Shown here: positions 17,232-55,064 of the stretch, one piece after another
How positions within the stretch are numbered: the first letter of the stretch is position 1
Layout of the letters: the number at the start of each line of letters is the position of its first letter
Source: Nitrospirota bacterium
Lineage (GTDB): Bacteria; Nitrospirota; JACRHL01
DNA: 64,000 bases
NCBI GenBank assembly: GCA_029881725.1
Contig: JAOUMB010000001.1
Location: forward strand, 17,321 to 81,320
Direction: 5' to 3'
Made by a program: the position numbers and the translations under genes
The notes under the pieces: generated by a model
Databases searched by the model: none
What the model was told of the DNA's origin: nothing
Seen by the model: the letters and a program-made list of their open reading frames with translations, nothing else

Positions 17232-17335
17232 AGTGCCCATAGATTTTCCAGATATTTCGCGTCCCGAAGGTCGAATTCACTCAACACCCGTCCCCCGTGC
17301 ACCGATAAGGGGGGAAGTCTGTTTCGTGCCCCAGA

Positions 17336-28472: not shown

Positions 28473-28475
28473 TCC

Positions 28476-29441: not shown

Positions 29442-29445
29442 CACG

Positions 29446-31193: not shown

Positions 31194-31212
31194 CCGGACC
31201 ACAAGGATCCCC

Positions 31213-32963: not shown

Positions 32964-33146
32964 GACAACCTCCCGGTCCGGGAGGTTATCCTGCAACGGA
33001 CATCCCCGGGCCACTGTAATTGGCCCGCCACGTCAGCGGGCATCGATGGCCGCAGCCACCTCCCCATTGCGCCATAACCCGCCGGGTCGCTATAACAGGG
33101 GCACTCAATTCACCCCTTTCACATTCGCCCCACGGAGGCATCCGGT

Positions 33147-34271: not shown

Positions 34272-34279
34272 GCTTCCCC

Positions 34280-35379: not shown

Positions 35380-36495
35380 CTAACGGGGGACTCCCGCCAG
35401 GGCCTCCAGCAGGTCCGCCCCCACCCGTTCCACGGAACAGAATTCCCGCACCCGCGCCACGCCCGCTTCGACCATTTTCCGATAGTGATCCGGCTCGTCG
35501 ATCAGGTGCGCGAATTTTTCCACAAACCCGGCTTCGTCGTCGTACAGGCACCAGGACAGTTCGCCGGTAAATAACTCATCGAACGGCCCCCACCGGTTGC
35601 ACAGCACCGGCAGGCCTGCCGCCATGGCGTCCACCACCACGTTGGGAAACACGTCCATTTCGGAACAGTAGACCAGCACGTCGGCCTCGCCCATGCGGCG
35701 CGGCAAGTCGTTCACGCGGCCGGGAAATTCGATGCGGCCCCGAAAGCGGCTGGCGCGCCACCGGTCGCGGCTCAGGCGGAAATAGCGCCCATCTCCGGCC
35801 AATGTCCAGTTCACTTCCGGGCGCGCGGCCATCACCGCCTCCATCAGGCCGTACAGGCGCAGCACCCCTTCGGTTTTGAGGCGGAACATGTACACCGTGG
35901 CGGTCAGCGCGCGCACCCCGCGCGCCGGGTCGGGCACGTAACCGGTGCGCACCCTGCCCACCGGCTTGGTGCTGCGCACCACCGCCATGGGGGTGCCTGG
36001 GAGCAGCTCTCGCGCCTTTTTTTGCAGATGCTCCGACATGGGCCACACGGCGTCGGCCACCGCCAGGTTGTGGAACCACACCCCGCGGTACCATTCGGCC
36101 TTGCCCCTGGTCCACCACCAGCGGGCAGCCACCACCTCGTCATACTCGCGCCAGGCATCGCCGCGCAGGCGCACCACGTAGCGGCACCCCAGCGCCTTGA
36201 TCCGGTCCACGAACCACGAATCCAGCAGCAACCGGTCGGTAAGCACGATCTTGTGCCTGTGCGGCAGCGCCGCGATGGCGTTCAGGGCGCGGCGGGAAAA
36301 CAGCTCCCCCACCCCCGGCACGCGCACGGTGATGGCCAGCGCGTGGCCGGGCAGAAAGTAGCGCTCGTAGGGCAGCGTTACCAGCGTGACCGGCAGCGCC
36401 TCCAGCGCCGCGCCAATCTCCGCGTAGCGCGGCGAGTGGATATAGATCAGGGCGGTGTCCTGCGGGGTCATGGCCTGTGCCGATCCGGCGGTCAT
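35380..36495 (-). CDS. GT4 (GT-B fold, RfaG/WbaZ-like) glycosyltransferase
   Basis: C-terminal GT-B donor-binding region (EADVLVYCSEMDVFPNVVVDAMAAGLPVL). Start ATG overlaps the stop of the upstream GT2 (ATGA). Confidence 0.8.
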   Translation of the reverse strand: MTAGSAQAMTPQDTALIYIHSPRYAEIGAALEALPVTLVTLPYERYFLPGHALAITVRVPGVGELFSRRALNAIAALPHRHKIVLTDRLLLDSWFVDRIKALGCRYVVRLRGDAWREYDEVVAARWWWTRGKAEWYRGVWFHNLAVADAVWPMSEHLQKKARELLPGTPMAVVRSTKPVGRVRTGYVPDPARGVRALTATVYMFRLKTEGVLRLYGLMEAVMAARPEVNWTLAGDGRYFRLSRDRWRASRFRGRIEFPGRVNDLPRRMGEADVLVYCSEMDVFPNVVVDAMAAGLPVLCNRWGPFDELFTGELSWCLYDDEAGFVEKFAHLIDEPDHYRKMVEAGVARVREFCSVERVGADLLEALAGVPR

Positions 36496-37418
36496 CCGCC
36501 CTTCAACCCCCGCATCACCCGCCACAGGAACCGCTGCAGCGGAACCCCGAACAGGGTGTCGACCAGCAGGACATACATCCCCAGCCGTTGAACCGGTGTT
36601 TCCAGAAACGCCCGCACCAGATAGCGCGATCCGTTGCGAAAATCCCGGTCGCGGAAATAGTGGTGCGCCACCTCCGACCAGCGGACGGCAAGCGCCTTGC
36701 GTTCGGTTCCGTGCCCGTATTTCGCAAAGCGGTCACCATGCTTGGACAGCAGGTGGCGGGTGGAGTTTTCCACGGACTCGCCGGTGGGGTTCCCGTCCCG
36801 GTACACCCGGGCCAGCGGCTTGGGGACCAGCACCAGTTCATACCGCTCCGCATAGCGCAGCAGCCAGTCCCAGTCGGTAAAGCGCGGCAGCGCGGTATCG
36901 TAATAGCCTACCTCGTCGAACACATCACGCCGAACCAGCAGCGTGGCGCCCGGAAACAAGCCGCACCCCATCAGCAGCAGCTTTTCCAGCGGGCGCGACA
37001 GGTGCGGAATCCTGGGGTAGGCCTCGCCGTCCGCCACCAGTTCGATGCCGCAGATGCAGCCGCGCACCGGGTCCGGGGCGCCTTCCAGCACTTCCAGTTG
37101 CGCGGCCAGCTTTCCGGGCAGCCATTCGTCGTCGGAATCCAGATAGGCCACATAGCGGCCGCGCGCGGCCCGCACGCCGGTATTCCGCCCCGCGGCCTCC
37201 CCGCCGTTGACCTCATGGCGGATCAGGCGCACGCGCGGGTCGTCCACGGACTCCACGGCGGCCACCGTCCCGTCCGTGGACCCATCGTCCACCACGACGA
37301 TCTCCAGATCAGGCACCGACTGCTCCAGCACGCTGCGGATGGCCCGCACGATGGTTTTCTCCCTGTTGAACGCGGGCATGACCACGCTTACCAGCGGAGT
37401 GGCGGAAGGTTCAAACAT
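36492..37418 (-). CDS. GT2 family glycosyltransferase
   Basis: VSVVMPAFNREKTIVRAIRSVLEQSVPDLEIVVVDDGSTDGT...YLDSDDEW GT-A/DXD motifs. Confidence 0.8.
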   Translation of the reverse strand: MFEPSATPLVSVVMPAFNREKTIVRAIRSVLEQSVPDLEIVVVDDGSTDGTVAAVESVDDPRVRLIRHEVNGGEAAGRNTGVRAARGRYVAYLDSDDEWLPGKLAAQLEVLEGAPDPVRGCICGIELVADGEAYPRIPHLSRPLEKLLLMGCGLFPGATLLVRRDVFDEVGYYDTALPRFTDWDWLLRYAERYELVLVPKPLARVYRDGNPTGESVENSTRHLLSKHGDRFAKYGHGTERKALAVRWSEVAHHYFRDRDFRNGSRYLVRAFLETPVQRLGMYVLLVDTLFGVPLQRFLWRVMRGLKGG

Positions 37419-38334
37419 ACATCTTCCCCAATCCGCGCCTGACGGCAGTGCCCAGGTTTCTCAGGAAGGCCAGTGGCCACAGCGGATTGAACCGCAAACC
37501 CCGCATCGCATACCCGATCGCCCGGAACAGGCGCAAGGAGCGCAACGCATGGTTGACCGCGTCAGACGCAAACCGGGAATGAGCCTTCTGGAGGACCCGG
37601 CGAAAGGACGCGGGGAAACCGGAGCCTTCAAGATACTTTTCCGCCAGACCCATGTCCTCCTCCAACCGGGGAAGGACGCTGCCAGAAGAGCGGTTGATAG
37701 AAATGGAGCCTCCGTGCAGCAGGTAGTGGTAAACATCCCCGTCGAGACACGCGTGATTCGGATTCAACAGGGCCGCCCGCAAGAGCAAATCCCGGTCGGA
37801 CGCGACTGGAAACGATGTGTCAAACCCGCCGACGGTGTCCAGAAAGGCGCGGCGGAAAAAGCGGGCATTGATGACCACCGCCCCCTGGGCCAGCATTTCC
37901 GGGGCCATGGCGAGGCGTTCCGCTCCCGCATAACGCAGCAGTTCCTTCTGGTGTGTACCTTGCTGCTCCCACACCACCGCCGCCCCCGACACCATGTCCA
38001 GGTTCGGTTGCCGGCTGAGATAATCGGCAACCAGCTTGAACGCACCGGACGCATACCGATCGTCGGTATTCAACAGGCCCACCCATTCTCCGGTGGCGCG
38101 CGCAATTCCCTTGTTGATGGCGTCGTACAGCCCGTCGTCCGGTTCGGATACCACCTTCAGATGCGGATATTTCGCCAGCACTTCCAGTGTGCCGTCGGTG
38201 GAGCCGCCGTCCATGACGATGTGCTCGAAATTGGGATAATCCTGGGCCAGCAGACTTTCAATAGCCTCGGCCACAAAGTCCCGCCGGTTCAGGCACGGGG
38301 TGACGATGCTGATGCGGGGCAGCGAGCCGCTCAT
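37411..38334 (-). CDS. GT2 family glycosyltransferase (paralogue A of a tandem pair)
   Basis: Start at [56 protein letters not shown] is near-identical to the same block in the next gene. Confidence 0.8.
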   Translation of the reverse strand: [307 protein letters not shown]

Positions 38335-39239
38335 GCGCCCGCCCCCAGCCGCCGGCGCACATTCCTGAGTACCCGTCCCGAAAAATAGAACGGCCACCAG
38401 GGGTCGCACCGCCAGCCCCTGGCCGCATAGGCGATTGCCCGTGCCGGGTGGCCGTCACGCAGGGCGGCAAACACCCCGTCGGTGGCCGCATGGCCGTGCC
38501 AGCGGCGGCAAGCGGCGCGCACCGGTCCCGGAGTGCCGGGTGCGCGCAGGTAGCGGCGCGGGATTTCCAGGTATTCCTCAATCAGCCGCCCCGCCACCGG
38601 CGTGCGCAGGGCGAAGGTCAGGGATCCCGCATGACGGCGGTAGCGGTACACGGTTTGATCCACCTGCTCCCCGCGCACCCCGGCCATGTACACGCGCAGC
38701 AGGAATTCCCGATCGGCGGCGATGCGGAAATCCGTGTCGTACAGCCCCACCCGCGCATACACCCCGGCGCGGAAAAAGCGCGCGTTGATCATCGGCTCCC
38801 CCACCGTCACATGGTGCAGGGTGAGCGGCCCGTAGACGGGACCGGAATATTCCGCCACGGTGCACGCGCCGTCCGGCCCGTCCTCGAATTCCAGTGCGCC
38901 GCCCGCCACCATGTCGGCCTGGGGGGATTCGGCAAACGCGCGCGCGATGCACGCAAAGGCGCCGGGCACATACAGGTCGTCGCTGTTCAGGTGGCCTAAA
39001 ATCTCCCCCGTGGCCATGCGGATGCCCTTGTTGATGGCATCGTACAACCCGTCGTCCGGTTCGGATACCACCTTCAGATGAGGATACTTCGCCAGCACAT
39101 CCAGGGTACCGTCGGTGGAGCCCCCGTCCACGATAATATGCTCGAAGTGGGGATACTCCTGAGCCAGCACGCTCTCCACCGCCTCAGCAATCATTTCGCG
39201 CCGGTTCAGGCAGGGGGTGATGATGGAAATCGTAGGCAT
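38331..39239 (-). CDS. GT2 family glycosyltransferase (paralogue B of a tandem pair)
   Basis: Start at [52 protein letters not shown]. 4-bp overlap with the downstream paralogue. Confidence 0.8.
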   Translation of the reverse strand: [302 protein letters not shown]

Positions 39240-39332
39240 GGAAGCTCTCAAATGATCCGGGATATTCCTTCGCAAACAGGTCCTGTATATCGTCGGATTC
39301 GTGTGGGCGATGCGGATACGAAAAGCGTCTGG

Positions 39333-40268
39333 CTACCAGTCGTCTTCCGTATAAAAATGAGCAGATATGCTTCCAGTTTTTTCCCGAATGCGCGCAATTT
39401 CCTCGTCAGTCAAACGTTTTTTCCAGGAATGGATCAGGTTGGAACTGTCCCTCCGAATCTCATGCTTCCCCTCGGTTTCCGAAGGATTTTCCGCCGATGT
39501 GTGGGCACGTATCACGTTCCGAACCTCGGGAGACAGAGATTCTCCAAGCGCCTGAAATACATCGCTGAAGCCACCCTCCGGATCCCGGGAAATGTCTTCG
39601 TGGCGAATAAATATCCAGTCTGGATGTCGATCGCGGTACCCGCGAATGGTCTCATGAATCAGATTCCACAGCAGGCAACCTTGGTCCACTATATTCATGT
39701 CCTGCGCAGCAAACTGCTCCAATTCACCCTTGAATTCACCTGCCATATCGCGCATGAACAAAGGCTGCCGGGTAAAATGGTCGAACGGGTGGGGCCATTC
39801 CGCCTTCTTCAGGCTGGAAACAAACGCCGCTGGATGCCGGATCATGGCGACAACCTGCATGTTGAACCGGCGCGCCAGCCATTCCGCTGAAAAAATGGCG
39901 ATCGGATCCTTTAGCAGCGGGCGGCGTCTCTCTCTTTTAAATAAACGGAACTCACGCCATTCCCAAAGTATTTTCATCATTTGCTTTGGACCCAGGCGTG
40001 GCGCCTGTCGCAGCCTTTCCATCGTGGAAAACGAAAACGTAACCGTGTCACAAAGCGCTTCATCAACCATTTCCGCATTGTCATCACAAATATAGGTGAA
40101 CCAAAGCGGAACATCGGCCCGGAACTGACCTCGGGAGTGGTTCACGTTAAACGGTTCGTGGATATACCCGAAGCGTGGGGATGCACAAAGCATCCGGCCC
40201 ACCCAGGTGGTTCCCGAACGATGTGATCCGGTTACCAGTACCGGTGAGTTTGTCCTGCCAGCGTTCAC
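39333..40268 (-). CDS. PAPS-dependent sulfotransferase family protein
   Basis: 5'-PSB-like P-loop VLVTGSHRSGTTW and downstream 3'-PB-like region (RHPAAFVSS). Lies in a lower-GC patch inside the glycosyltransferase operon. Confidence 0.75.
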   Translation of the reverse strand: MNAGRTNSPVLVTGSHRSGTTWVGRMLCASPRFGYIHEPFNVNHSRGQFRADVPLWFTYICDDNAEMVDEALCDTVTFSFSTMERLRQAPRLGPKQMMKILWEWREFRLFKRERRRPLLKDPIAIFSAEWLARRFNMQVVAMIRHPAAFVSSLKKAEWPHPFDHFTRQPLFMRDMAGEFKGELEQFAAQDMNIVDQGCLLWNLIHETIRGYRDRHPDWIFIRHEDISRDPEGGFSDVFQALGESLSPEVRNVIRAHTSAENPSETEGKHEIRRDSSNLIHSWKKRLTDEEIARIREKTGSISAHFYTEDDW

Positions 40269-40280
40269 TCCACATTCTCC

Positions 40281-40991
40281 TTACCCATTGGGAACTCCGG
40301 TTTCGGCTCCCGAGCGCTTCCCAAAGACCTTTCGAAACTGAGCAATGTCCTGAAAAGCAGGCGAAAGGGCCCTCAATTCCTCTTCCGGCAACTCCCACCA
40401 GCGGCTCTCCAGAAGAAAGCGGATATCGTCTTCCTCAAACCGGTATCGAATCAGCCGTGCCGGGTTGCCACCCACGATGGCGTACGGCGGCACATCCTTG
40501 GTAACCACTGCCCCGGCGGCCACCACGGCGCCTGTGCCAATGGTTACGCCACCGGGAATTATTGCCCGGTTGCCAATCCACACGTCGTGGCCGATCTCGG
40601 TGGGCAGCGGATCTTCGTCAAACCCCGGCCGGGTCACAAACGAGCAGCGGCAACCCGAGTTGTCCACCGAAAAAAAAGCCGGATAGGTGGACACGAAATC
40701 CCGCGCCGGGTGGCGGAACATGCCGATCTGCACCTCCTGCCCGATGGAGCAGAAGCGGCCCGCCCGCACATTGACCAGAATGGCCCCCTGCGCGGCATAC
40801 GAAAAATCCCCCAACCCGCTCCGAACCAGCCTGCTACGGTCGTGCGCCACCGAATGCCGCCCCAGGGTGCTCTCGATCACCCGCGCCCCGGCGGCCACCC
40901 GCACATTGCGCTCGGGCGTCGTCTGCCACATTTCCCTTCCGGTCAGCAGTCCCACGCCGCGACGCAGAATCCGCAACAGTCTCCGTATCAT
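40281..40991 (-). CDS. Hexapeptide-repeat O/N-acetyltransferase (xenobiotic acetyltransferase XAT / CatB-like subfamily)
   Basis: Start placed at MIRRLLRIL. Left-handed beta-helix repeats ([53 protein letters not shown]), which are XAT-like. Confidence 0.75.
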
Positions 40992-41004
40992 GGCGTCCTC
41001 CCCA

Positions 41005-42186
41005 TTATTTCGGGTCTCCGGCAATGCTCCGCCACAGTTTGCGAAACACGACCCGGATGACAAACCTGATGGCCGTGCGCGGCATGTATTTCGCGCAGAA
41101 TTCCTCGAACAGAAGGTGGTCGGACGGCGGTTTAAGGTTCGCGTCCCGCCGACACAGGATCAGGTCCTCCCCCTCAATCCCGTAGATGACGTTGGCAACC
41201 TCCGGTTTCATGCGCAACCCGAAACCCATCCGAGCAGTATTGCTCCTGCGTGTGGTCAGAACATATTCGGCGGCCACCTTGGAGAGGTCTTTCGAACCGT
41301 GCACGTCCACCGCATAGTCGTATCCCCGCAACCGGCCGGTGAGACGATTCAGCCGATCCGGGAGGATCTCGAAATGGGCGTCATACACCGCCACCGCCGA
41401 ATCCAGTGACTGAAACCGGAAAGGTGTTCCCTCCCGGGCCAGCGGCACCTGAAACATCAGGGTGGTCGACAGAAAGTGGGTCCCCGGTTCTCCTGTGTTG
41501 GTGGTCAGGCTTACTCGCGGAAAGACAAAATACCGGTCGCTCTCCACCATGTATTTGATAAAGCGCTTCAGCCACGAGCTGTCCGGCCAAGCGATGACCG
41601 AATCGGGCAACGGGTCGTCCTTGGATACCCCTTTTCCATCCCCATACCATTGCCGGAATGCGCTCCATTGGGTAGCGCTCCACGCCTGCCCCCAGGAGGA
41701 GGCAAACTGGATGAAAAACACGTCGCCCAGGTCGGGGACGGGGGAGAACGGCCTTGCCAGATAGGGAACCAGCGTGTGGCAATACAGCGAAATCCCGGCG
41801 ATGCGCGGGTCGTCACGGTAACTGTCCTGGGCATCCATCGTGTACCGGTAAAACGCGGGGGACACCAGCAGGTCATCCTCCAGGACGATAACCCCGCCGT
41901 ACTCCAGGGACAGGTCCCCACACGCGAGAATGTGCTCCCGCAGCCCCAGATTTTCCGGGTGTTCAATAATCCGTTTGGGGCCAAACCGCCAGTCAAACGC
42001 CCGTGCGGCCGTCGCCACCGCATCGGTATCGCTCTTGTCGATGCTGATGACCAGGGTCACCGGCTCCTCCGGATAGGCTGCCTGCGCCAGGGTACCCAGC
42101 AACCGGACGAGGGCGTCGGGGCGGTTATAGGCGGCCACCACAATGGCCGGGATTTTTCCGCTGTTCACGGTTTGTTGGTCGGTCAC
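41005..42186 (-). CDS. GT-A fold glycosyltransferase resembling eukaryotic-type N-acetylglucosaminyltransferase I (GnT-I / CAZy GT13-like)
   Basis: [22 protein letters not shown] ... [37 protein letters not shown] parallels the MGAT1 core (AVVVVACNRPEYL... VVEDDLEVAPDFFEYF...DPSLWCVSAW), including the EDD metal-binding motif. Assignment is from remembered family motifs, not a search. Confidence 0.6.
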
Positions 42187-42232
42187 GCGGCGCTCCCCCG
42201 GCGGCTGTGAATGGCTTGAATCCTCATGTCGA

Positions 42233-43159
42233 TTACCGGCCGATCAACATGGCAAGACGACCCACATAGTCCATCAATGGAGCGACTTCTTCGACCTGAT
42301 ACTGCTGCCAGTACGGATACCTTTCCCGATCTCTGAACCACACCTTGATCATGCCCTTGAAAACCAGTCTTCCTGCAGTCAGGAAAAACCGCCCAACCCA
42401 GTCTCGCCAACGCCAACCGTAATCTCCAAACAATACGTAACCTGACTTCCCGATCAGGTAACGAACCCTGAAATAATGGGGAACGGTCATTTTTCGGGGA
42501 GGCGCCAGGTGTTCCACCATCAATTCCGGATGGTAATACGCCTTTAACCCCGGTTTATATTCCCTGGCGTGGCGAATCAACAAGGTCTCCTCTCCAAACG
42601 CAAACGCATCCCCTTTTGGCCCGACCTCCGTATCAAACCCACCCAATTTATCAAGCAGGTCCTTCTGAAAAAACAGATTGGAGCCAGAAATATATTGTCT
42701 GTCATTCAGCCACCCCGGGGTATCCAGAACGCGGCGGATTTCATATTGGTCCTTAAACCACACAGGTCTGTTGGTCAGGTAAAACGGGTAGATCGATCCA
42801 CCGAAAATATCCGGCTCATGCTCGCGGATGATCTCAATCGCACGGCTGATCCAGTCGGGCATGGCACGGGCATCGTCATCCATGAACGCCACATAGGCGG
42901 CGCGCGCTTCGCGCCACCCTGCATTTCGGGCCACGCTGGCTCCCGGAACCGGCTCATCGATCACTTTGAAAAAAGGGTATTTAGCTGCATATTCCGCAGC
43001 AATTTCCGCAGTGTTATCGGTGCAATTGTTATTGACGATGATGACTTCATACTGGCCTTCGCATCCAACCTGCCGCACCAGCGAGTTAAAACAGCCGTCC
43101 AGAAGGTCCGCTCGATTATAGGTGGCCACCACCACGCTGATGATCGGGGTTCCACTCAT
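42233..43159 (-). CDS. GT2 family glycosyltransferase
   Basis: Start at MSGTPIISVVVATYNRADLL (ATG overlapping the upstream stop, ATGA). DXD-like FMDDDA. Lower-GC codon usage. Confidence 0.8.
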   Translation of the reverse strand: MSGTPIISVVVATYNRADLLDGCFNSLVRQVGCEGQYEVIIVNNNCTDNTAEIAAEYAAKYPFFKVIDEPVPGASVARNAGWREARAAYVAFMDDDARAMPDWISRAIEIIREHEPDIFGGSIYPFYLTNRPVWFKDQYEIRRVLDTPGWLNDRQYISGSNLFFQKDLLDKLGGFDTEVGPKGDAFAFGEETLLIRHAREYKPGLKAYYHPELMVEHLAPPRKMTVPHYFRVRYLIGKSGYVLFGDYGWRWRDWVGRFFLTAGRLVFKGMIKVWFRDRERYPYWQQYQVEEVAPLMDYVGRLAMLIGR

Positions 43160-44100
43160 TGGTTCCACAACTCCCTCTCAATCCATTTTCCCAGCCGGGC
43201 ACGAACCAGAGGAAACAGTCGGAATCCGGCCATGGAATCCAGAACCCCCGCAACGCTGGCCGGAGTACGGAAGGAGAAGAGGTCCAGTTTCATTGCCTTC
43301 AGAAAGTGGCTACGGGCTTCTGATATCTCACCCCCGGAATAAAGCTGTTCCGCACCGTGATAGTTGTGCCATGAGCGGATCCGACTCTCCTGACGCAACA
43401 CCCTCTGATCCCGGCACTGCCGAAAAAACCGTTCCAGAATCACCTCCCGTTCGCGCACAAACGGTATCCGGCTGCCACCGGTTTTGCTTTCATCATGCAG
43501 ACGAAACATCGCCAGGGGTTCATGCAGATACGCAAAATTAAAGGACAGGCTCGCCCGGTACCAGAAATCCACGTCCATCACGTAGTGAAGCGCCGGATCA
43601 AACGATTCCAGGGCATCCAAAACTCTGCGTCGGATAAACACGGTGGGTTGAAAGATAAAATTGCGGCACAATTGAACGGCCACATTAAATGGTCGGCTCT
43701 TCCACACCTGCTTTCGGCGCCCTTCTGCATCGATTACCGTCAAATCCGAATAAACCAGGTCCACTTCAGGGTGCTGCTCAAAATATTCCGCCACGCGCCA
43801 GAACGCGCCCGGCTCGTACAGGTCGTCCGAGTTCAGGTAGGCGACGATATCGCCGGTGCTCCTGCGCAACCCCTTGTTGATGGCGTCGGTCTGCCCGTTG
43901 TCCGGTTCGCTCACCCACCAGGCCAGCCGGTCCGCGTATTTTTCGATGACGTCGACGCTGTTGTCGGTGGAGCCGCCGTCCACCACCATGTATTCCAGAT
44001 TCGGATAATCCTGATCCAGCACCGAACGGATGGTTGCGTCCAGAAATTGTCCCTGGTTGAAGGACGGGGTGACGACGGAGATGCGGGGCATTTCAATCAT
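43156..44100 (-). CDS. GT2 family glycosyltransferase (third member of the ISxxTPxxN...VDGGSTD paralogue family)
   Basis: MIEMPRISVVTPSFNQGQFLDATIRSVLDQDYPNLEYMVVDGGSTDNSVDVIEKYADRL...YLNSDDLY shares the same block structure as the genes at 37411-39239. Confidence 0.8.
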   Translation of the reverse strand: MIEMPRISVVTPSFNQGQFLDATIRSVLDQDYPNLEYMVVDGGSTDNSVDVIEKYADRLAWWVSEPDNGQTDAINKGLRRSTGDIVAYLNSDDLYEPGAFWRVAEYFEQHPEVDLVYSDLTVIDAEGRRKQVWKSRPFNVAVQLCRNFIFQPTVFIRRRVLDALESFDPALHYVMDVDFWYRASLSFNFAYLHEPLAMFRLHDESKTGGSRIPFVREREVILERFFRQCRDQRVLRQESRIRSWHNYHGAEQLYSGGEISEARSHFLKAMKLDLFSFRTPASVAGVLDSMAGFRLFPLVRARLGKWIERELWNQ

Positions 44101-44106
44101 GCGGCG

Positions 44107-44988
44107 CTAGGAGAACAGGGAGTCGTAGTCGACCCGTTCAAACACATCCAGAAAACCGCCCTTGGTGGCGTTGTAAATACGAATTCCGTGCCGTTCGGCA
44201 TAGGTCCTTTGCCGGCGGTACCCTTCCCACATTCTGACCACGGCACTGGCCAGTTTGTCGTAGGGCCAGTCACCAACACCCGTATCTCCCGGTTGGGGGG
44301 GGAAGAAGTGCCGGTACCCTTCCTGGCCATATTTCAACCAATCATGGTCCATGCCGATCAGATAGATTTCACTGGCCCCCATGTACATCGCCAACTGGAT
44401 GCACATGACCGGCGTGGTTTGACACGAAGGCAGTGGACGGGTCAAGTCGAGTTCGAACCCTTCCACGGTGGGATCCACGTCCCCTCGCTGGTACAGATAA
44501 CGCAGATCCTTACCCGCAAACACGCCGCTTTCTTCCAGCGCCTGCCGGGCCTGCACCGGAACAAAATAGCTCTTTGCCCGCACCCGCTCGGATACACCGG
44601 AAACAAACTCCTGCACCCAGGGGTCGGACGCAATCTCCTTGATTTTCGGGTCCACCCCCACCCAATAGGTCGGGCTCCACCTGTCCAGCAGGGGTGAACG
44701 GTGGAACAGGTTGACCACAAAGGTGACTTCACCAAAAATGCGGGTCAGGTCGAGTTCGTTCAAGGAGGGTCCGTTGCCCAGAATAAAACAGCGCCGACCG
44801 TCCAGCGCCCCTTTGAGGTCGGCGTTGCGGCTCAGGGCTTTCCTTCCGCTGTCGCCAACCTCCTGGAGCCTCACTTCCTCCAGACGTTTCCGCTCCTGCG
44901 CTTGCAGCTTCCGATGGTGGGCCTCGACCAGGCCATGGGGCGTGATCCACCGGGCCATTCGGCGCATCGTTTGGGATATCCCTTTCAT
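44107..44988 (-). CDS. DUF115 / Maf (motility-accessory-factor)-like protein; candidate nonulosonic-acid (pseudaminic acid) transferase
   Basis: RCFILGNGPSLNELDL motif characteristic of the DUF115/MptE-like family, to which the Campylobacter Maf flagellin pseudaminyl-transferases belong. Start ATG overlaps the pseI stop (ATGA). Confidence 0.65.
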   Translation of the reverse strand: MKGISQTMRRMARWITPHGLVEAHHRKLQAQERKRLEEVRLQEVGDSGRKALSRNADLKGALDGRRCFILGNGPSLNELDLTRIFGEVTFVVNLFHRSPLLDRWSPTYWVGVDPKIKEIASDPWVQEFVSGVSERVRAKSYFVPVQARQALEESGVFAGKDLRYLYQRGDVDPTVEGFELDLTRPLPSCQTTPVMCIQLAMYMGASEIYLIGMDHDWLKYGQEGYRHFFPPQPGDTGVGDWPYDKLASAVVRMWEGYRRQRTYAERHGIRIYNATKGGFLDVFERVDYDSLFS

Positions 44989-46052
44989 TCAATCAGATCC
45001 CAGGATGCGGGGGTGCCGCGCCGAACACTACGGGTCACCCGCTTTCCCATCAATGTGCCAATGAACTTGGGGGGTAATCCATGTCCCGGTCGAATGGCAC
45101 GCAGGTTTTCCCCGGAAAAAGCCTCTCCCGCCTCCATATCCTTCACCACATAGAGAGAGCGTCGAAACCGGATGGAGGCCCGTTCTTTTTCGGTGGGGCC
45201 GTACGAAATGCTGCCCAATGCCTGCCAGGCCCGCTCACTTTCGACCACCAGCGCCTTCAGTTCACCCGGTTCCAGCGAAAAAGCGGAATCCACCCCGCCA
45301 TCGGCCCGCGCCAGGGTGAAGTGCTTTTCAAGGAGCGTGGCCCCCAACGCCACGCTGGCCACCGCCACCCCAACGCCCATCGTGTGGTCCGACAGCCCCA
45401 CCTGACAACCAAATAACTCCCGCATGTGGGGTATGGTGAGGATGTTGGTGTTTTCCGGGGTGGCCGGATAGCTGCTGGTGCATTTGAGCAGAATCAGGTC
45501 CCCGCAACCGGCCTCCCGCGCGGCGGTGACTGCTTCGTCCAGCTCGGCCACGGTGGCCATGCCGGTGGAGATGATCATCGGCTTTCCAGTGGCGGCCACC
45601 TTGCGGATCAAAGGCAGGTCGATATTCTCGAACGATGCGATCTTGTAAGCGGGAACGCCCAGTTCCTCCAGAAAATCCACGGCGGTTGCGTCGAACGGGG
45701 AACTGAACGCCACCAGCCCGCGCTCCTTGCACCGGTCCAGAATCGGCCGGTGCCATTCCCAGGGGGTATGTGCCTTCTGGTACAGGGCATACAGATTTTC
45801 TCCATGCCACAGGCTGGAGGGGTCATCGATGGCAAACTCCCCCTCCTTCAGGTCCAGGGTCATTGTGTCCGCGGTATAGGTCTGAAGCTTGAGCCCGTGC
45901 GCGCCCGCATCGGCGGCCGCATCGACAATCTCCAGCGCCCGCTCGAGGGACTGATTGTGGTTGCCGGACATCTCGGCAAGGACGAAGGGCGGATGAGCCG
46001 GCCCAACCGAAACCCCACCAACGGAGATGACTGTACTGTCTTTTTCCACCAT
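44985..46052 (-). CDS. pseI: Pseudaminic acid synthase (NeuB family)
   Basis: Start at MVEKDSTVISVGGVSVGP. FVLAEMSGNHNQSLERALEIVDAAADAGAHGLKLQTY, YKIASFE, LKCTSSYPA and GLSDHT motifs, plus a C-terminal SAF domain, closely parallel PseI/NeuB. Confidence 0.9.
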   Translation of the reverse strand: MVEKDSTVISVGGVSVGPAHPPFVLAEMSGNHNQSLERALEIVDAAADAGAHGLKLQTYTADTMTLDLKEGEFAIDDPSSLWHGENLYALYQKAHTPWEWHRPILDRCKERGLVAFSSPFDATAVDFLEELGVPAYKIASFENIDLPLIRKVAATGKPMIISTGMATVAELDEAVTAAREAGCGDLILLKCTSSYPATPENTNILTIPHMRELFGCQVGLSDHTMGVGVAVASVALGATLLEKHFTLARADGGVDSAFSLEPGELKALVVESERAWQALGSISYGPTEKERASIRFRRSLYVVKDMEAGEAFSGENLRAIRPGHGLPPKFIGTLMGKRVTRSVRRGTPASWDLIE

Positions 46053-46060
46053 TTCTCCTC

Positions 46061-46312
46061 TCACGCTCCGGATCGGGCTGGCACCACATGACGCATCAGA
46101 CAAAACGCTTCGGCAGCACCCGTGCCCACACTCGCTCCGCGCCAACGGGCCAAGTGTTCCACCGCTTCCCTGGAGCGAGCGTGTGGCCACGGTCTCATTT
46201 CCTCCTGGTAGCAATCCAGAGCCGCCAGCTTGATGGCCCCGCACGACGATACAACGTCAGCGAGAACCAGCGGAAAATCGGTAGCCACCACGTATGCCTG
46301 CTCGTCAGGCAT
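46061..46312 (-). CDS. Small hypothetical ORF (83 aa) filling the gap between pseG/H and pseI
   Basis: Start at MPDEQAYVVATDFPLVLADVV. Fills an otherwise unexplained 283-bp gap in a tightly packed operon. No motifs recognised; could be non-coding. Confidence 0.3.
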   Translation of the reverse strand: MPDEQAYVVATDFPLVLADVVSSCGAIKLAALDCYQEEMRPWPHARSREAVEHLARWRGASVGTGAAEAFCLMRHVVPARSGA

Positions 46313-46335
46313 CGTCTTTCGCTTTCCGCGGATGC

Positions 46336-47901
46336 TTAGCCCGCGGTTTCCGCAACAGGGTTTTGAACCCACAGCCCGTCTTTCCCCAACAGATATCCTT
46401 CACGTTCAAACAACATTCTGGAGCCCGTATTCTGATCCAGAATCTCCGCCTTGATCTCGGCGTACGGGACCAGTCTCCTGGCACACCGGATTGCTGCGCC
46501 TCCCACCCCCTGCCGCTGATGGTCCGGAGCTACAAGAAGGGAAACCTCGTACACGTCTCGGTTTTCTTCCCCCTCCAGGCTGTCGAGCCTTAATACCCCT
46601 GCTGGCTGCCGCTTATGTATCACAATATTCAGCAGGCACGACGGATCACTCAATCGAGACTTAAACCAGGACACATGCTCATCAAAAGACGGTACGCTCG
46701 GATTCCGGCAATGCGTCCGCATTCCCGGAGTGGACTGCCATTCAAATACCCGCTGAATATCCTCCGTTCGGGCCGGGCGCACCCACACCGGATTTTTATC
46801 GGTCGCGAACTCCGGAACCAGCCGCTGTCCCACACGCCCCGTCCCCAATCCGTCACACATCCTGGCCGCTTCCAGGGACATTCGGGTCAAGCGTTCTGGA
46901 TCTTCCGCAAGGTTCCTCAGTGAAGTCGCGATATGTTCCGGGTCCACACTCCGAAAATTCCCCAGGTTAACGGCTGCACCGGCGCGTTCCATGATGCCGG
47001 CGACCAGCATCTGGTTCTCTGCAATCACCAAAGTCATCGAAGGGAGCCCCATACAGCAACGTTCCCAGGAAGTGGTGCCAGCCGCCCCGATCCCGATGTC
47101 CGCGTGTGCCATCAACTCGGGTATGTTGCCCGGGCTCACATGTACGGCAACGTCCAGCGACGATTCCTCACACCAGTGTCGCACCACTTCCAGATGCGGT
47201 GCGCCATGCGCCAGAATGACATCCACGGTCCATTGAAATCCGCTTAAGGCGATCGCCTCGAGCACGGTTTTCGTCACGTTATCCGGATCCAAAGCCCCCA
47301 TGCCCACCAAGATGCGCGCAACGCCTTTACGTGATCGACGTCGGGCCAACGAAGTCGTCCGCACCTGATTGAACTCCGGCCGCAACAGTGCATACGCGCT
47401 ACCGGTCATCGTATGGGCGGATGGCGCCAAGGCCTGATAATCCCCCGGCAGACGCCCAAAGGTCTGATCCAGAAGCAAATCGCAATCGTGGTGCCGATCC
47501 GCCAGATCATCAATCACCATGATTCGCTCCACATGAGGACGCAAGACCCTCTCCCAATTGGCATCGATCGCGTAATGGTCCACGATCAGCCAGTCCGGAC
47601 GCACTGCCATTTCCCGGATAGCCCCCACCGTCTGCTCCGCGTCCATGGCCACGGAAGCACCCAGCCAGTGCGCATGCCCCTCCTGCCGGGCTTCCTCCTG
47701 GAAACCGTCGATTCCGGGCAGGCGGGAGACCGGATAGCTCCGTTCCCGCTCGACCCAATCACACAGGTTTCCCGGGTGTTCACGGAATATAAAATGAACC
47801 TGGTGCCCCTCCTCCCGAAGCCGGTCAGCCAGGGCCAGGCAGCGCATGACGTGGCCGGTACCAATCATCAGGGCGGCATCTGTGCGGAACACGAATTTCA
47901 T
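46336..47901 (-). CDS. pseG: Bifunctional PseG-PseH fusion: UDP-2,4-diacetamido-2,4,6-trideoxy-beta-L-altropyranose hydrolase (N-terminal, GT-B-like) fused to a GNAT N-acetyltransferase (C-terminal)
   Basis: N-terminus MKFVFRTDAALMIGTGHVMRCLALADRL is PseG-like. C-terminal about 150 aa has a GNAT fold with motif A QRQGVGGAAI. Confidence 0.8.
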   Translation of the reverse strand: MKFVFRTDAALMIGTGHVMRCLALADRLREEGHQVHFIFREHPGNLCDWVERERSYPVSRLPGIDGFQEEARQEGHAHWLGASVAMDAEQTVGAIREMAVRPDWLIVDHYAIDANWERVLRPHVERIMVIDDLADRHHDCDLLLDQTFGRLPGDYQALAPSAHTMTGSAYALLRPEFNQVRTTSLARRRSRKGVARILVGMGALDPDNVTKTVLEAIALSGFQWTVDVILAHGAPHLEVVRHWCEESSLDVAVHVSPGNIPELMAHADIGIGAAGTTSWERCCMGLPSMTLVIAENQMLVAGIMERAGAAVNLGNFRSVDPEHIATSLRNLAEDPERLTRMSLEAARMCDGLGTGRVGQRLVPEFATDKNPVWVRPARTEDIQRVFEWQSTPGMRTHCRNPSVPSFDEHVSWFKSRLSDPSCLLNIVIHKRQPAGVLRLDSLEGEENRDVYEVSLLVAPDHQRQGVGGAAIRCARRLVPYAEIKAEILDQNTGSRMLFEREGYLLGKDGLWVQNPVAETAG

Positions 47902-47994
47902 GCCTGCAACAAACGTCCTCTGTTCATCATTGTTCTAACTCCTGAATAGAGAGTGGATGTTTGCTCCAGCAAGGCACTCCCCTTGTGGTGCCCT

Positions 47995-48721
47995 TTAAAC
48001 GTGTTTTTGTCCCACATGGGCATTGATTTCCAACAGGGACGGACGGCTTCCAACCAGCCGCAATACGTCCGCATAGCCAAACCGCGGGTTATCCGGCCAC
48101 AGGGCCGCATAAACTTCCCGTATCAGGCGCAGGTCGTCCGGCTCGTCCACCGTCCAGCGCAGGTGGCTATGATCCTCCGAATCCACCAGGTGCCCCTGCG
48201 GAAAGCGCTCCGGGCGGCGCCAGATGAACGGGGTCACGTGTTCCCGCTCCCCCGGCTCCACGGCCTCCCGGCTGGCGGCTTCCAGCGCGTCCCGGCTGAA
48301 CACCTCCACATCCAGCCCGCGTGGAAACGTCCGCTGGTGACAGTTGGACACATAGGCCACCGCCGGGGCAGCAGCCGCATACGCCTCCACACACCGATCG
48401 ATCACCTGGGGATCGATCAACGGACAATCGGACGTGATCCGAACCACCACGCCAGCTTTCGCCGCCTGCGCGGCTCCCTGATACCTGGCCAGCACATCGT
48501 CCGTGCTGCCGCGCCATACCGAAACGCCCAATTGTTCGCACAGGGCCAGGATAGGTGCTTCCGTTCCATCGTCGGTGGTGGCGATCCACACCTGTTTCAA
48601 GCGGGAGGCGCGTCGCACCCGTTCCAGCACGTGCCACAGCAGCGGTTTTCCCTGCAGGTCCATCATCACCTTGCCGGGCAGCCGCGTGGAGGTCATGCGC
48701 GCCTGAATGATGGCGACCACT

Positions 48722-48729
<8 letters not shown>
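47995..48729 (-). CDS. pseF: Pseudaminic acid cytidylyltransferase (CMP-sugar synthetase family)
   Basis: VVAIIQARMTSTRLPGKV ... VRITSDCPLIDP motifs of the NeuA/PseF family. GTG start at 48729 (or 48720) adjacent to or overlapping the pseC stop. Confidence 0.8.
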
Positions 48730-52177
<3,448 letters not shown>

Positions 52178-52186
52178 GGTCCGCTA

Positions 52187-53023
52187 CTACACCAGATCCG
52201 CATAGGTGGCTTCCATGCGCCGGAACATGTACGCACCCAGCACCAGGAAAAACAGGGAAATCCCCACCGACCCGTACAGCGCCGGGTTGGGTGGCGTAAC
52301 CGTCGAAAACATGCTCCAGCGGGTCAGTTCGATCACCCCCACCACCGGGTTTAACCCGTACAGCCACTGCCATTTTTCCGGGATCATCGACAGTGGATAA
52401 ATGACTGGTGAGGCAAACATTCCCACCCGAACGATAAACGGCACCAGTTGCCCCACGTCCCGGTATTTGATGTTCAGCGCGGAAAAGCACAGCCCAACCC
52501 CCAGCGCCGAGACCCAAGCCCACACCAAGCCCAACGGCACCGCCCACAGGGCGTGCCAACTGGGCACCATGCCCTTCAACAGAGTGGCCGCCAGCAACAC
52601 CAGTATCGCCACCAGCGCATCCACCAGTGGCACCGCGGTGGCGGCCAGGGGCGTAATCACCCGTGGAAAATAGACCTTGGTCAGTAGCGCCCGCTGACTC
52701 ACGAGCGAGTTGGAGACATCCGCTAACGCCGAGGCGAAGAAGGTCCAGGGAATTATCCCGGCCAGGAAAAACAGCGGGTAGGGGATGTCTCCCGATGGCA
52801 TGCGCGCCCAGATGCCAAAGATGATCGAGAAGATGACCGCCATCAGAACCGGGTTCAGCACCGCCCACATCAGCCCCAGCGCGGTCTGCTTGTAGCGCAC
52901 CGACACGTCGCGCCACACCAGTTGCAGCAGCAGTTCACGGAACGACCACAATTCCGAAAAGCGGAACGGGTGGACTCCGGTGGCCGGGGAGATGACCGTT
53001 TCAGTGTCGGCTCTGGAGGTCAT
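52187..53023 (-). CDS. wzm: O-antigen/polysaccharide ABC exporter permease Wzm (ABC-2 type)
   Basis: Start placed at [11 protein letters not shown] (overlaps the fcl stop). Six TM segments. Motifs such as ELWSFRELLLQLVWRDVSVRYKQTALGLMWAVLNP are typical of ABC-2 permeases. Confidence 0.8.
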   Translation of the reverse strand: MTSRADTETVISPATGVHPFRFSELWSFRELLLQLVWRDVSVRYKQTALGLMWAVLNPVLMAVIFSIIFGIWARMPSGDIPYPLFFLAGIIPWTFFASALADVSNSLVSQRALLTKVYFPRVITPLAATAVPLVDALVAILVLLAATLLKGMVPSWHALWAVPLGLVWAWVSALGVGLCFSALNIKYRDVGQLVPFIVRVGMFASPVIYPLSMIPEKWQWLYGLNPVVGVIELTRWSMFSTVTPPNPALYGSVGISLFFLVLGAYMFRRMEATYADLV

Positions 53024-53988
53024 CCCCGCACCGTGCCCTTCTCCCGCTCCGCGTGAAAATCCGCCACCGACTGGCGCACGCCGTCTTCCAGGCCGATGGT
53101 TGGCGTCCAGCCCAGCGCGGTGAGCCTGGACGTATCCAGCAGCTTGCGCGGGGTGCCGTCGGGTTTCGTCGCATCCCACACGATGTCGCCGGTAAAACCG
53201 GTGAGCTTTTGCACCAGCTCCGCCAGTTCACGGATAGAGATGTCCTTGCCCCATCCGGCGTTGATGAGCGGCATGGCGTCCTTGTCCGCATGCACCCGAT
53301 CGGCCAGATACAGGCAGGCGTCGGCCAGGTCGTCCACGTGCAGAAACTCGCGGCGCGGGGTGCCGGATCCCCACAGGGTGACGGTAGCGTCGCCCCGCTC
53401 GGCAGCTTCGGTGAACTTGCGGATCATGGCCGGCAGCACGTGGGAGCCGTTCAGGTCGTAGTTGTCGCCAGGGCCGTACAGGTTGGTGGGCATCACCGCG
53501 ATGTAGTCGGTGCCGTATTGCCGGTTATAGGCCTCGCACATGGAGATTCCGGCAATCTTGGCCACCGCGTAGGGGGCGTTGGTGGGCTCCAGCGGGCCGG
53601 TCAGGAGGTGGTCCTCCTTCATGGGCTGGGGGCACTCGCGGGGGTAGATGCAGGAGGAGCCGAGAAAGACCAGCCGCTGCACCCCGGACTTCCACGCCTG
53701 ATGAATCACGTTGTCCTGAATGGCCAGATTGTCGCGGATGAACTCCGCGGGAAAGGTGTTGTTGGCCAGGATTCCGCCCACTTTGGCGGCGGCCAGAAAC
53801 ACCACCTGGGGCCGTTCGGCGGAAAAGAAGTCCGCCACGTCGGCCTGACAGGTCAGGTCCAGTTCGGCGCGGGTGCGGGTGATGATGGATTCAAAGCCCG
53901 CCGCCGCAAGGCGCCGCACCAGCGCGGCACCCACCATGCCGCGATGGCCCGCCACGAACACGCGGGCCGTTTTGGCCAGTTCGCTCAT
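53020..53988 (-). CDS. fcl: GDP-L-fucose synthase (GDP-4-keto-6-deoxy-D-mannose 3,5-epimerase/4-reductase)
   Basis: [22 protein letters not shown] and YAVAKIAG motifs. Full-length WcaG/Fcl similarity. Confidence 0.9.
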
Positions 53989-55064
53989 TCGTGATGGACC
54001 CGCGTATCAATGGTGTGCCCGGCTTTTTTGAGGGTGTTCTCCCGCTCGGCCAGATCCAGATCGTGATCCACCATCATCGCCACCAGCCCGTCGATGTCCA
54101 CCTTCGGGTCCCACCCCAGCACCTTTTTGCTCTTGGTGGGGTCGCCCAGCAGCAGTTCCACCTCGGCGGGACGGAAGTAGCGGGGATCGATCTCCACGAA
54201 CTGCTCCCAATCCAGTTCCAGCCGCCCGAATACCTTCTGCACGAATTCGCGCACCGAGTAGGTCTTGCCGGTGGCGATCACAAAATCGTCCGGGGTGTCC
54301 TGTTGCAGCATGCGCCACATGGCTTCCACATAATCGCCCGCAAAACCCCAGTCGCGCTTGGCGTCCATGTTGCCCAGATACAGCTTGTCCTGAAGCCCCA
54401 GCTTGATGCGGGTGGCGGCGCGGGTGATCTTGCGGGTCACAAAGGTTTCGCCGCGGCGGGGGGACTCGTGGTTGAACAGGATGCCGTTGGTGGCAAACAT
54501 GTCGTAGGCCTCCCGGTGGTTCACCGTCTGCCAGTAGCCGAATACCTTGGCCACCGCATAGGGGCTGCGCGGGTGGAACGGGGTGCTTTCGGTCTGCGGG
54601 GTTTCACGCACCTTGCCATACATCTCGGAGGAGCAGGCCTGATAAAAGCGCACCTCGTGCCCGGTGCGGTCCCGGTAGTCCCGCAGGGCCTCCAGCAGGC
54701 GCAGGGTGCCCACCGCCACCACGTCGGCGGTATACACCGCTTCGTCGAAGGACACCTTCACGTGGGACTGGGCGCCCAGGTTGTATACCTCGTCCGGCTT
54801 CACCTGCTCCACGATGTGACGCAGGTTGGCACCGTCGGCCAGATCACCGTAATGCAGAAACAGGCGCGCCCCCTTCTGGTGCGGATCCTGATAGATATGA
54901 TCGATGCGCTGGGTATTGAAGGTGGAGGCGCGGCGGATGATCCCGTGCACCTCGTACCCCTTGTCCAGCAGCAACTCGGCCAGATACGAGCCGTCCTGTC
55001 CGGTAATTCCGGTAATCAGTGCAACCTTGCGTTCACTCGACACGATGTCCTCCACACGCGACAA
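53985..55064 (-). CDS. gmd: GDP-mannose 4,6-dehydratase
   Basis: [50 protein letters not shown] and [10 protein letters not shown] are canonical Gmd. 4-bp overlap with fcl. Confidence 0.95.

Follow-up and report, generated by a model that had tools for sequence, protein, structure and literature searches.

How closely a bacterial glycosyltransferase can resemble N-acetylglucosaminyltransferase I (GnT-I, or MGAT1) of the eukaryotes is the question raised by one gene in the Nitrospirota bacterium contig JAOUMB010000001.1. The stretch analysed, positions 17,321 to 81,320 of the contig and 64,000 nucleotides (nt) long, is here called the window, and all coordinates are given within it. GnT-I and its relatives start the synthesis of complex N-glycans and of O-mannose glycans in animals and plants. 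A preliminary description of the gene, made from its sequence, had presented the product as a GT13-like, eukaryote-type glycosyltransferase (GT) that does not look like the family GT2 enzymes around it, and as one of an uncommon and poorly characterised set of bacterial proteins. The present analysis indicates that it is probably a cytoplasmic, membrane-associated, metal-dependent Leloir glycosyltransferase of the GT-A type, working with the O-acetyltransferase encoded beside it on a glycan exported by Wzm/Wzt. The core of its family is the nearest bacterial relative found here of GT13 (GnT-I, POMGnT1) and GT16 (GnT-II), and the protein itself is not a member of GT13. The features on which this is based are the following.

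41005..42186, minus strand: GT13-like glycosyltransferase gene, 393 amino acids (aa), GTG start and TAA stop (open reading frame, sequence, identical database protein P0001, AlphaFold2 model)
41467..42150, minus strand: GT-A catalytic core, residues ~13-240, the GT13/GT16-like part (PF00535, PF03071, hhalign, Foldseek)
41872..41880, minus strand: E103-D104-D105, a DXD-type metal and nucleotide-sugar motif, equivalent to E211-D212-D213 of GnT-I

The likeness to GnT-I is weak when the single sequence is considered. A search with the Pfam GNT-I profile, PF03071, had been put forward as a check. It does return a signal, at 19.1 bits (E=6e-4) and over residues 95-133 only, but this misses the cut-off of 25.4 bits. 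It is the GT2 profile, PF00535, that is matched above its cut-off (34.9 bits against 23.3), from residue 15 to 113 and over profile positions 2-96 of 168. On the same profile the GT2 proteins of the neighbouring genes reach 92-127 bits, and the protein is therefore unlike the GT2s that surround it, as had been described. No NCBIfam model names it. A confident GT2 assignment with no GT13 signal, the outcome on which the GT13 proposal was to be given up, was not obtained.

At the level of the family the likeness is clear. In an alignment of 38 diverse relatives that are 40-58% identical (alignment A1), 34 match PF03071 at E<=0.01, 30 match PF00535, and 19 match PF05060, the MGAT2 profile. At E<=8e-6, equivalent to the gathering score of PF03071, there are 17 matches to GNT-I, 17 to GT2 and 2 to PF05060. 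The family therefore straddles the PF03071 threshold. When the A1 profile was compared with all PDB sequences, GnT-I (1fo9) came first (E=3.3e-4), with POMGnT1 (5ggf) at E=2.5e-3. The best GT2 enzyme was 5tze (E=0.038), and MGAT2 had an E value of 0.072.

The GT-A domain is also structurally closest to GnT-I and POMGnT1. The AlphaFold2 model of the protein (predicted local distance difference test, pLDDT, 92.1; predicted template modelling score, pTM, 0.87) has the secondary-structure order of the GT-A fold, with a Rossmann-like alpha/beta/alpha core, a DXD motif and a glycine-containing loop. Foldseek found 336 PDB matches to it at E<=0.001, and all 50 of the matches listed are glycosyltransferases. 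Ranks 1-7 are GnT-I and POMGnT1 (E=3e-12 to 6e-11, template modelling (TM) scores of 0.46-0.56, 16% identity). The best E values are 3e-12 for GnT-I (1fo8), 4e-12 for POMGnT1 (5ggi) and 1e-10 for MGAT2 (5vcs), with COLGALT1 of GT25 (9e-9) and the GT2 enzymes (5e-8 to 1e-6) further down, giving the order GT13, GT16, GT25, GT2. GT13, GT16 and GT54 have been described as one GT-A clade (PMC7185993), and the appearance of GT13 and then GT16 fits with this. GnT-II (MGAT2; 5VCM, 5VCS; GT16, PF05060) is the second-best structural neighbour, although it is weaker than GT13 in every test and has no match past the core.

The two likenesses differ in extent. With hhalign, A1 aligns to eukaryotic GT13 sequences at 93.8% probability (E=1.7e-7) over 155 columns, residues 37-239, the GT13 set being exon-sized eukaryotic pieces that were retrieved with GnT-I fragments as bait and do not include the N-terminal third of GT13. 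In the control comparison with five GT2 neighbours the probability is 85.7% (E=5.4e-6) over 111 columns, and only residues 12-134 are covered. Since the GT2 match ends at residue 134 and the GT13 match reaches 239, in the acceptor half, the GT2 likeness is that of the generic nucleotide-binding half. By three tests, namely the family profile against PDB, Foldseek, and hhalign with GT13 compared to the GT2 neighbours, the core is nearer to GT13 than to GT2, and the GnT-I likeness first proposed for it is above chance.

A divergent GT2 enzyme like its neighbours, resembling GT13 through common GT-A ancestry (Pfam clan CL0110), would account for the Pfam scores on either side of their cut-offs, for the PF00535 matches of 30 of the 38 relatives, for the names 'glycosyltransferase family 2' and 'family A' under which the sources label relatives, and for the hhalign probability of the control. 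It is an unlikely explanation, however, when true GT2 neighbours score 92-127 bits, when likeness to GT2 stops at residue 134 and that to GT13 continues through 239, and when GT13 and GT16 outrank every GT2 structure by 2 (profile) and 4-6 (Foldseek) orders of magnitude in E. No GT2 likeness through the acceptor half was found in the hhalign comparison, and Foldseek ranks GT2 below GT13, GT16 and GT25. What the protein shares with GT2 (PF00535; SpsA-like enzymes and the five neighbours) is the N-terminal nucleotide-binding half and a role as one of several glycosyltransferases of a surface-glycan operon. The neighbours lack its 150-residue C-terminal domain and its SSWGQAW, WPxSSW, NFGDxGxH and VYD signatures.

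The GT13-like reading of the core extends to its conserved residues. The N-terminal peptide blocks quoted in the preliminary description are present in the protein, and the EDD motif that was singled out is residues 103-105 (41880-41872). In 120 relatives E103 is conserved in 120, D104 in 119 and D105 in 120, and its counterparts in the alignment are EDD in 1fo9 and EED in POMGnT1. R22, D50, H85 and G166 are invariant or almost so. Of these, R22 and D50 align to the ACDR and SQD segments of GnT-I. No claim is made for H85 as the equivalent of GnT-I H190, since the alignments are inconsistent. In comparison with GT13 as a whole (PF03071; GnT-I structures 1FO8, 1FO9 and 1FOA, POMGnT1 structures 5GGF and 5GGI), the core is alike and the EDD is in the same place, the nucleotide-binding segments with R (ACDR/YNR) and D (SQD/SID) align, and a W-P...W segment ahead of the acceptor helix and a P-x-x-S...FG-x-x-G segment are common to both. 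A conserved glycine (G235) and an NFGDxGxH signature lie in the segment equivalent to the donor-lid loop of GnT-I.

The general base is different. In GnT-I, with its E211-D212-D213 motif, D213 is on the metal and D291 is the candidate general base (PMC7014118). HMMER and hhalign give one register for this region in the sequence alignments, in which W205-L206-K207 corresponds to W290-D291-D292 of GnT-I. The GnT-I residue numbers in this register come from the chain count of 1fo9 and from the rabbit sequence.

41569..41571, minus strand: Leu206, aligned to the GnT-I general base D291 and marking the acetyltransferase-paired subfamily (HMMER and hhalign)

In the 120 relatives this position is Lys in 67, Leu in 39 and Phe in 8, and is never Asp or Glu. 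The adjacent K207 is nearly invariant. With Leu, Lys or Phe in this place, the family must do without the general base of GT13, and either a residue elsewhere serves as the base or the reaction follows a different chemistry. D202 was considered as a substitute and rejected, since 17 of the 120 members have no acidic residue at all at 201-204. The conserved acidic residues besides D50 and the EDD are D269 (120 of 120, in the VYD motif after the core), D155 (114 D and 4 E) and D294 (114 D and 6 N). With the GT13/GT16-type base absent and D202 no replacement for it, an inverting mechanism is not secure.

The part of the protein that follows the core has no counterpart in GnT-I.

41122..41466, minus strand: family-specific C-terminal domain, residues ~241-355, with invariant Y268-D269 (no Pfam match; conservation in relatives)
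41020..41082, minus strand: C-terminal basic amphipathic helix, residues 369-389 (helix in the AlphaFold2 model)

When residues 236-365 were compared by hhalign with GT13 domain-2 sequences the probability was 0.2% (E=0.31). The domain modelled alone has a pLDDT of 87.1, and Foldseek found no significant match to that model in PDB (best E=0.56, TM 0.16). On these grounds it was rejected as a GnT-I-like domain 2, and a shared 'YD..F' string has no statistical support. The last 36 residues have a net charge of +5 (median +6 in 94 relatives), and their hydrophobic moment in the relatives, 0.47, exceeds the 0.33 of a control segment from inside the protein. The helix is a probable membrane-interface anchor, and a basic amphipathic tail would suit an enzyme peripherally bound to the cytoplasmic face, where its acceptors would be lipid-linked. 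It is the sole candidate membrane element. The type II topology of an N-terminal anchor and stem with a lumenal catalytic domain was not found; as the protein begins 12 residues ahead of its first beta-strand, there is neither anchor nor stem.

The protein is not a member of GT13 because it is below the PF03071 cut-off, does not keep the D291 base, has an unrelated C-terminal domain and lacks the N-terminal anchor and stem. Membership, as implied by the preliminary description, can therefore not be upheld, PF00535 being the profile whose cut-off is exceeded. It also differs from the GT13 enzymes in being bacterial, only ~16% identical, encoded in polysaccharide operons and belonging to a family often fused to a second glycosyltransferase.

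The gene directly downstream provides further information on the role of the protein.

40281..40991, minus strand: XAT-class (CatB/Vat-like) hexapeptide O-acetyltransferase (Hexapep match, NCBIfam, PDB similarity)

The more likely start is the ATG at 40991, 13 nt past the glycosyltransferase stop codon and preceded by GGGGAGGA, a strong Shine-Dalgarno sequence, which gives a protein of 236 aa. The longest open reading frame starts from a TTG at 41063, with a 59 nt overlap with the end of the glycosyltransferase gene (40992-41063). The closest PDB sequences are CatB (3eev, E=7e-29), PaXAT (1xat, E=3e-26) and VatD (1khr, E=1e-25). As in the XAT class (CatB, Vat, PaXAT; 3EEV, 1XAT, 1KHR), the protein aligns over a left-handed beta-helix and a C-terminal RF...LL...WW segment of XAT type. 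It differs from the class in an N-terminal extension of ~50 residues and in being sited in glycan clusters beside this glycosyltransferase family. Its NCBIfam scores are 112 bits for CatB (cut-off 350), 106 for Vat and 142 for TIGR03308, all under the equivalog cut-offs, so by the NCBIfam definitions it is not a resistance enzyme. Being under these cut-offs and encoded in glycan clusters beside the glycosyltransferase, it would be expected to O-acetylate a glycan rather than modify an antibiotic.

The pairing of the two genes is widespread. Related loci were retrieved with an 8-sequence alignment and two peptide patterns only; 85 were fetched, of which 84 are distinct, and these were searched by tblastn with the neighbouring proteins of the window. 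In 53 of the 84 an acetyltransferase homolog (34-62% identical, E down to 1e-86) directly flanks the glycosyltransferase gene on the same strand. Counting the window, the paired loci span at least 8 phylum-level groups and are found in either gene order. The acetyltransferase is downstream in the window, Leptospirillia, Ca. Electrothrix, Planctomycetota (5 of 6), Ignavibacteriota and 6 Bacteroidota loci (including L010, L011 and L015). The reverse order, with the acetyltransferase upstream, is that of 33 Bacteroidota loci (Flavobacteriaceae for the most part), of 4 of 9 Bacillota loci (3 Lachnospiraceae and 1 Oscillospiraceae) and of Amphritea. Among the cultured bacteria that have both genes are Arenibacter certesii DSM 19833 (L064), A. 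latericius DSM 15913 (L075), Cellulophaga, Flagellimonas and Maribacter. Among the 54 loci that have an acetyltransferase homolog anywhere, it is adjacent in 53, where ~0.2 would be expected by chance under a model of ~10 neighbours per locus (P~4e-36). When one observation is taken per phylum-level group, P is ~3e-6. In de novo clustering of all neighbours within 6 kb, the acetyltransferase is the one neighbour that occurs often and also adjoins the glycosyltransferase gene, the median gap being 21 bp.

Residue 206 of the glycosyltransferase follows this pairing. Leu206 is found in 53 of 53 acetyltransferase-paired proteins and His137 in 52, and none of 18 Lys206 proteins is paired (Fisher P=2.6e-13). 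The glycosyltransferase of the window has Leu206 and His137. The five contexts fetched by exact protein identity, the window included, all agree with the association. Among the 120 independently sampled relatives the combinations His137/Leu206, Tyr137/Lys206 and His137/Lys206 account for about a quarter each. Both the XAT acetyltransferase adjoining the glycosyltransferase gene and its association with Leu206 are new in this analysis.

Other genes recur at these loci. Wzx, Gmd, an Fcl-like epimerase and a Wzy-like protein are frequent, mostly kilobases away and mainly in Bacteroidota. Within 6 kb of the glycosyltransferase gene, GDP-mannose dehydratase is found at 28 and the Fcl-like epimerase at 35 of the Bacteroidota loci (L010-L085), and both are also present in the window. 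This co-occurrence could reflect a link to repeat units containing 6-deoxyhexose, or be a lineage effect. The Wzy-like membrane protein is at a median of 208 bp from the glycosyltransferase gene in 33 Bacteroidota loci. No fusion of the glycosyltransferase and acetyltransferase, of the 'Rosetta stone' kind, is present among 260 representatives, in which the extra domains are GT2-like.

A mechanism can be proposed that starts from the fold, the donor and metal motifs, the relationship to GT13 and GT16, the distinct C-terminal domain, the operon context and the co-inheritance of the partner. By alignment with the ACDR and SQD segments of GnT-I, R22 and D50 would bind the nucleotide sugar, and by comparison with GnT-I D213, D105 of the EDD would bind a divalent cation. 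By analogy the donor may be a UDP-HexNAc; the preliminary description had a GlcNAc-type residue being added. One sugar would be moved onto a growing lipid-linked glycan at the inner membrane face, with the basic amphipathic C-terminal helix keeping the enzyme at the membrane and the C-terminal domain, with Y268-D269, probably shaping the acceptor site. The Leu206 subfamily and its XAT partner probably form a 'glycosylate and O-acetylate' module, in which the acetyltransferase would most likely acetylate the sugar added by the glycosyltransferase or the acceptor of that sugar. The glycan would also carry a pseudaminic-acid-type sugar.

Several points weigh against this account of the protein. 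The curated cut-offs of Pfam put it in GT2 and not in GNT-I, the TM-scores to GnT-I are just 0.47-0.55, and the general base expected of a GT13/GT16-type enzyme is absent from the family. The donor and acceptor that are proposed, like the anomeric outcome and the need for a metal, are deductions. Since 31 of the 84 loci are without the acetyltransferase, the pairing is a trait of a subfamily and not of the whole family. Bacteroidota make up 55 of the 84 sampled loci, a WLK motif was demanded by one of the two retrieval patterns, which inflates the share of L206, and the lineages behind the L206 association are not independent. Adjacency, moreover, is evidence of co-inheritance, and says nothing of the molecule that is acetylated.

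It is also conceivable, though very unlikely, that GT13-type inverting chemistry has been abandoned. The enzyme would then be retaining, or its acceptor (for example a phosphate, a nonulosonic or uronic carboxylate sugar or an already acetylated residue) would need no Asp base or would prefer a pocket that is basic or hydrophobic, and K207 and residue 206 would define the acceptor type. The xED-type Asp is indeed absent at the aligned position, beside the nearly invariant K207, but this depends on one alignment register, and the invariant D269 or the conserved D155 could act as the base from elsewhere. Residue 206 tracks the acetyltransferase partner, yet the nearest relatives are all inverting enzymes. 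Nonulosonic-acid and sulfotransferase genes are nearby in the window and in some relatives, although nonulosonic-acid genes are within 6 kb at only 1 of the 84 comparison loci.

It is most improbable that the protein does the work of GnT-I or POMGnT1, adding GlcNAc to a mannose-type residue of the bacterial glycan as an inverting UDP-GlcNAc:alpha-mannoside beta-1,2-N-acetylglucosaminyltransferase: GT13 enzymes are its closest solved structures, the EDD is invariant, the donor-lid segment has a conserved G235 and its own NFGDxGxH signature, and genes for GDP-mannose-derived sugars are in the cluster, but the identity to GnT-I is ~16%, Leu, Lys or Phe stands in place of D291, there is no relation to the C-terminal domain with which GnT-I helps to bind its acceptor, and the clusters of the family carry very different sugar pathways, so that a single shared acceptor is unlikely.

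A membrane-associated GT-A enzyme paired with an O-acetyltransferase is the preferred reading of the protein in the window, and the family to which it belongs is large. A word-indexed search gave 2,077 clusters at 90% identity (E<=0.001). In an exhaustive search of 1.84 billion representatives at 50% identity, the number of hits was 8,236 at E<=1e-3, falling to 4,069 at E<=1e-10 and to 1,072 at E<=1e-30. The two narrow peptide patterns alone recovered at least 134 species, among them Nitrospirota, Acidobacteriota, Bacteroidota (most), Planctomycetota, Cyanobacteria, Proteobacteria, Bacillota, Ignavibacteriota and Desulfobacterota. The family is present in glycan clusters of both the Wzx/Wzy type and the ABC type. 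The words 'uncommon' and 'eukaryote-type' in the preliminary description are thus not appropriate: this is one member of a broad bacterial family, ~16% identical to GnT-I and of a composition ordinary for its cluster. No sign of a eukaryotic origin was seen, and a recent transfer from a eukaryote was rejected on the same breadth of the bacterial family and on composition.

The family appears to be experimentally uncharacterised. No characterised bacterial member of it, or of PF03071, GT13 or GnT-I, was found in the literature, which, together with the lack of an NCBIfam model naming the protein, agrees with its having been called poorly characterised. Text matches to 'GT13' in papers from the Whitfield laboratory concern GT136 and GT137 and are irrelevant. 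Reviews have treated the GnT-I group as one without bacterial counterparts. In 2014 it was stated that bacterial equivalents of the MGAT enzymes had not been found (PMC4202792), and in a 2017 survey of 153 genomes, 67 of them prokaryotic, PF03071 was present only in animals and plants (PMC5225481). The family is a distinct variant of the GT-A glycosyltransferases, set apart by its non-canonical base position, its domain of unsolved fold and its partner-linked subfamily. With the same core, another base position and a new acceptor domain, it would provide a widespread bacterial outgroup for the origin of the Golgi branching enzymes, and a natural case in which to test the dependence of the GT-A mechanism upon the xED aspartate. 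The pairing and the Leu/Lys206 marker offer an annotation rule that splits a family labelled merely 'glycosyltransferase'. The pairing also suggests that O-acetylated sugars of O-antigens and capsules are made by a compact unit of two genes, of possible use in glycoengineering once the donor and linkage are known.

It may be speculated further that the family is the bacterial sister group, and possibly the source lineage, of the Golgi GlcNAc-branching enzymes (GT13/GT16/GT54), without the xED/D291 base and with an acceptor domain of unseen fold, and that its Leu206 branch is an obligate glycosylate-then-O-acetylate cassette moving between phyla. Taken as a whole, this is rather unlikely.

Some individual relatives deserve mention. 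A second domain, GT2-like where recognisable, is present at either end in 81 of 260 representatives (~31%), which are longer than 460 aa. Fused relatives such as P0072, P0074, P0084, P0210 and P0228 are 460-1,900 aa in length and lack the amphipathic tail. A 44%-identical homolog (L005, 8001-9143) is on a 191-kb contig of a metagenome-assembled genome (MAG) labelled Candidatus Heimdallarchaeota, in a bacterial-looking cluster with Wzx, GT4 and methyltransferase genes; either the contig is a binning contaminant or an archaeon has received the gene by transfer. Searching annotated plasmids by tblastn gave three weak hits (identity <=32%), named 'glycosyltransferase' or unannotated. An unnamed viral protein of 282 aa in BFVD (A0A386K979) equals GnT-I in the strength of its match to the model (E=1.8e-12, TM 0.44/0.59), and the remaining viral Foldseek matches are generic GT-A folds.

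The glycosyltransferase gene is part of an operon within a larger cluster.

42193..42199, minus strand: Shine-Dalgarno sequence GGGGGAG, 6 nt upstream of the GTG start (read from the sequence)
35380..55064, minus strand: surface-glycan cluster of ~19 co-directional genes, ~20 kb (Pfam scans)
39333..40268, minus strand: sulfotransferase gene, 12 nt downstream of the acetyltransferase in the same operon (PF13469 and PF00685 matches)

The open reading frame fills exactly the positions first given for it, and its GTG start has a good ribosome-binding site. The gaps between the genes here are only 46, 13 and 12 nt, so the gene is considered operonic. It has a GC content of 59% and a base composition ordinary for its cluster. 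The identical protein P0001 is recorded from a Nitrospirota MAG under the name 'glycosyltransferase' only. Counted from the low-coordinate end, the gene is the seventh of the ~19, which run in the order GT4, three GT2, sulfotransferase, XAT acetyltransferase, the GT13-like gene, two GT2, MptE-like, NeuB/PseI-like, GT28N+GNAT fusion, cytidylyltransferase, PseC-like, PseB-like, Wzt, Wzm, epimerase and Gmd. The cluster is an ABC-transporter-type surface-glycan cluster with a pseudaminic-acid-type pathway. Within it the glycosyltransferase is unusual but no surprise; gene and cluster are both of an ordinary kind.

The pathway for the pseudaminic-acid-type nonulosonic acid is encoded at 44107-51075 on the minus strand by the PseB-like, PseC-like, cytidylyltransferase, GT28N+GNAT fusion (521 aa) and NeuB/PseI-like genes. 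The MptE-like protein beside it, which scores 32 bits against a cut-off of 34.6, could be a nonulosonic-acid transferase. The Wzm/Wzt exporter genes are at 50930-53179 on the minus strand. The C-terminal region of Wzt scores 29.3 bits, slightly under the Wzt_C cut-off of 30.4, which hints at export coupled to the recognition of a chain-end modification. The cluster is flanked on the plus strand by pstSCAB-phoU and a peptidase, the former being a complete pstS-pstC-pstA-pstB-phoU phosphate-uptake operon (27423-31917) that adjoins it on the outside. Long open reading frames opposite real genes, at 31980-33014 and 33621-34745 on the minus strand and in large numbers on the plus strand across 36-55 kb, have no Pfam matches; rather than genes, they resemble the antisense open frames that GC-rich DNA commonly contains.

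The sulfotransferase was considered as a conserved third partner and rejected, as it is present only in the window and in Ca. Electrothrix; no homolog was found in the remaining 83 loci. In Ca. Electrothrix communis (L003, 12301-13458) the order glycosyltransferase, acetyltransferase, sulfotransferase is repeated, which suggests a sulfated, acetylated glycan in both organisms.

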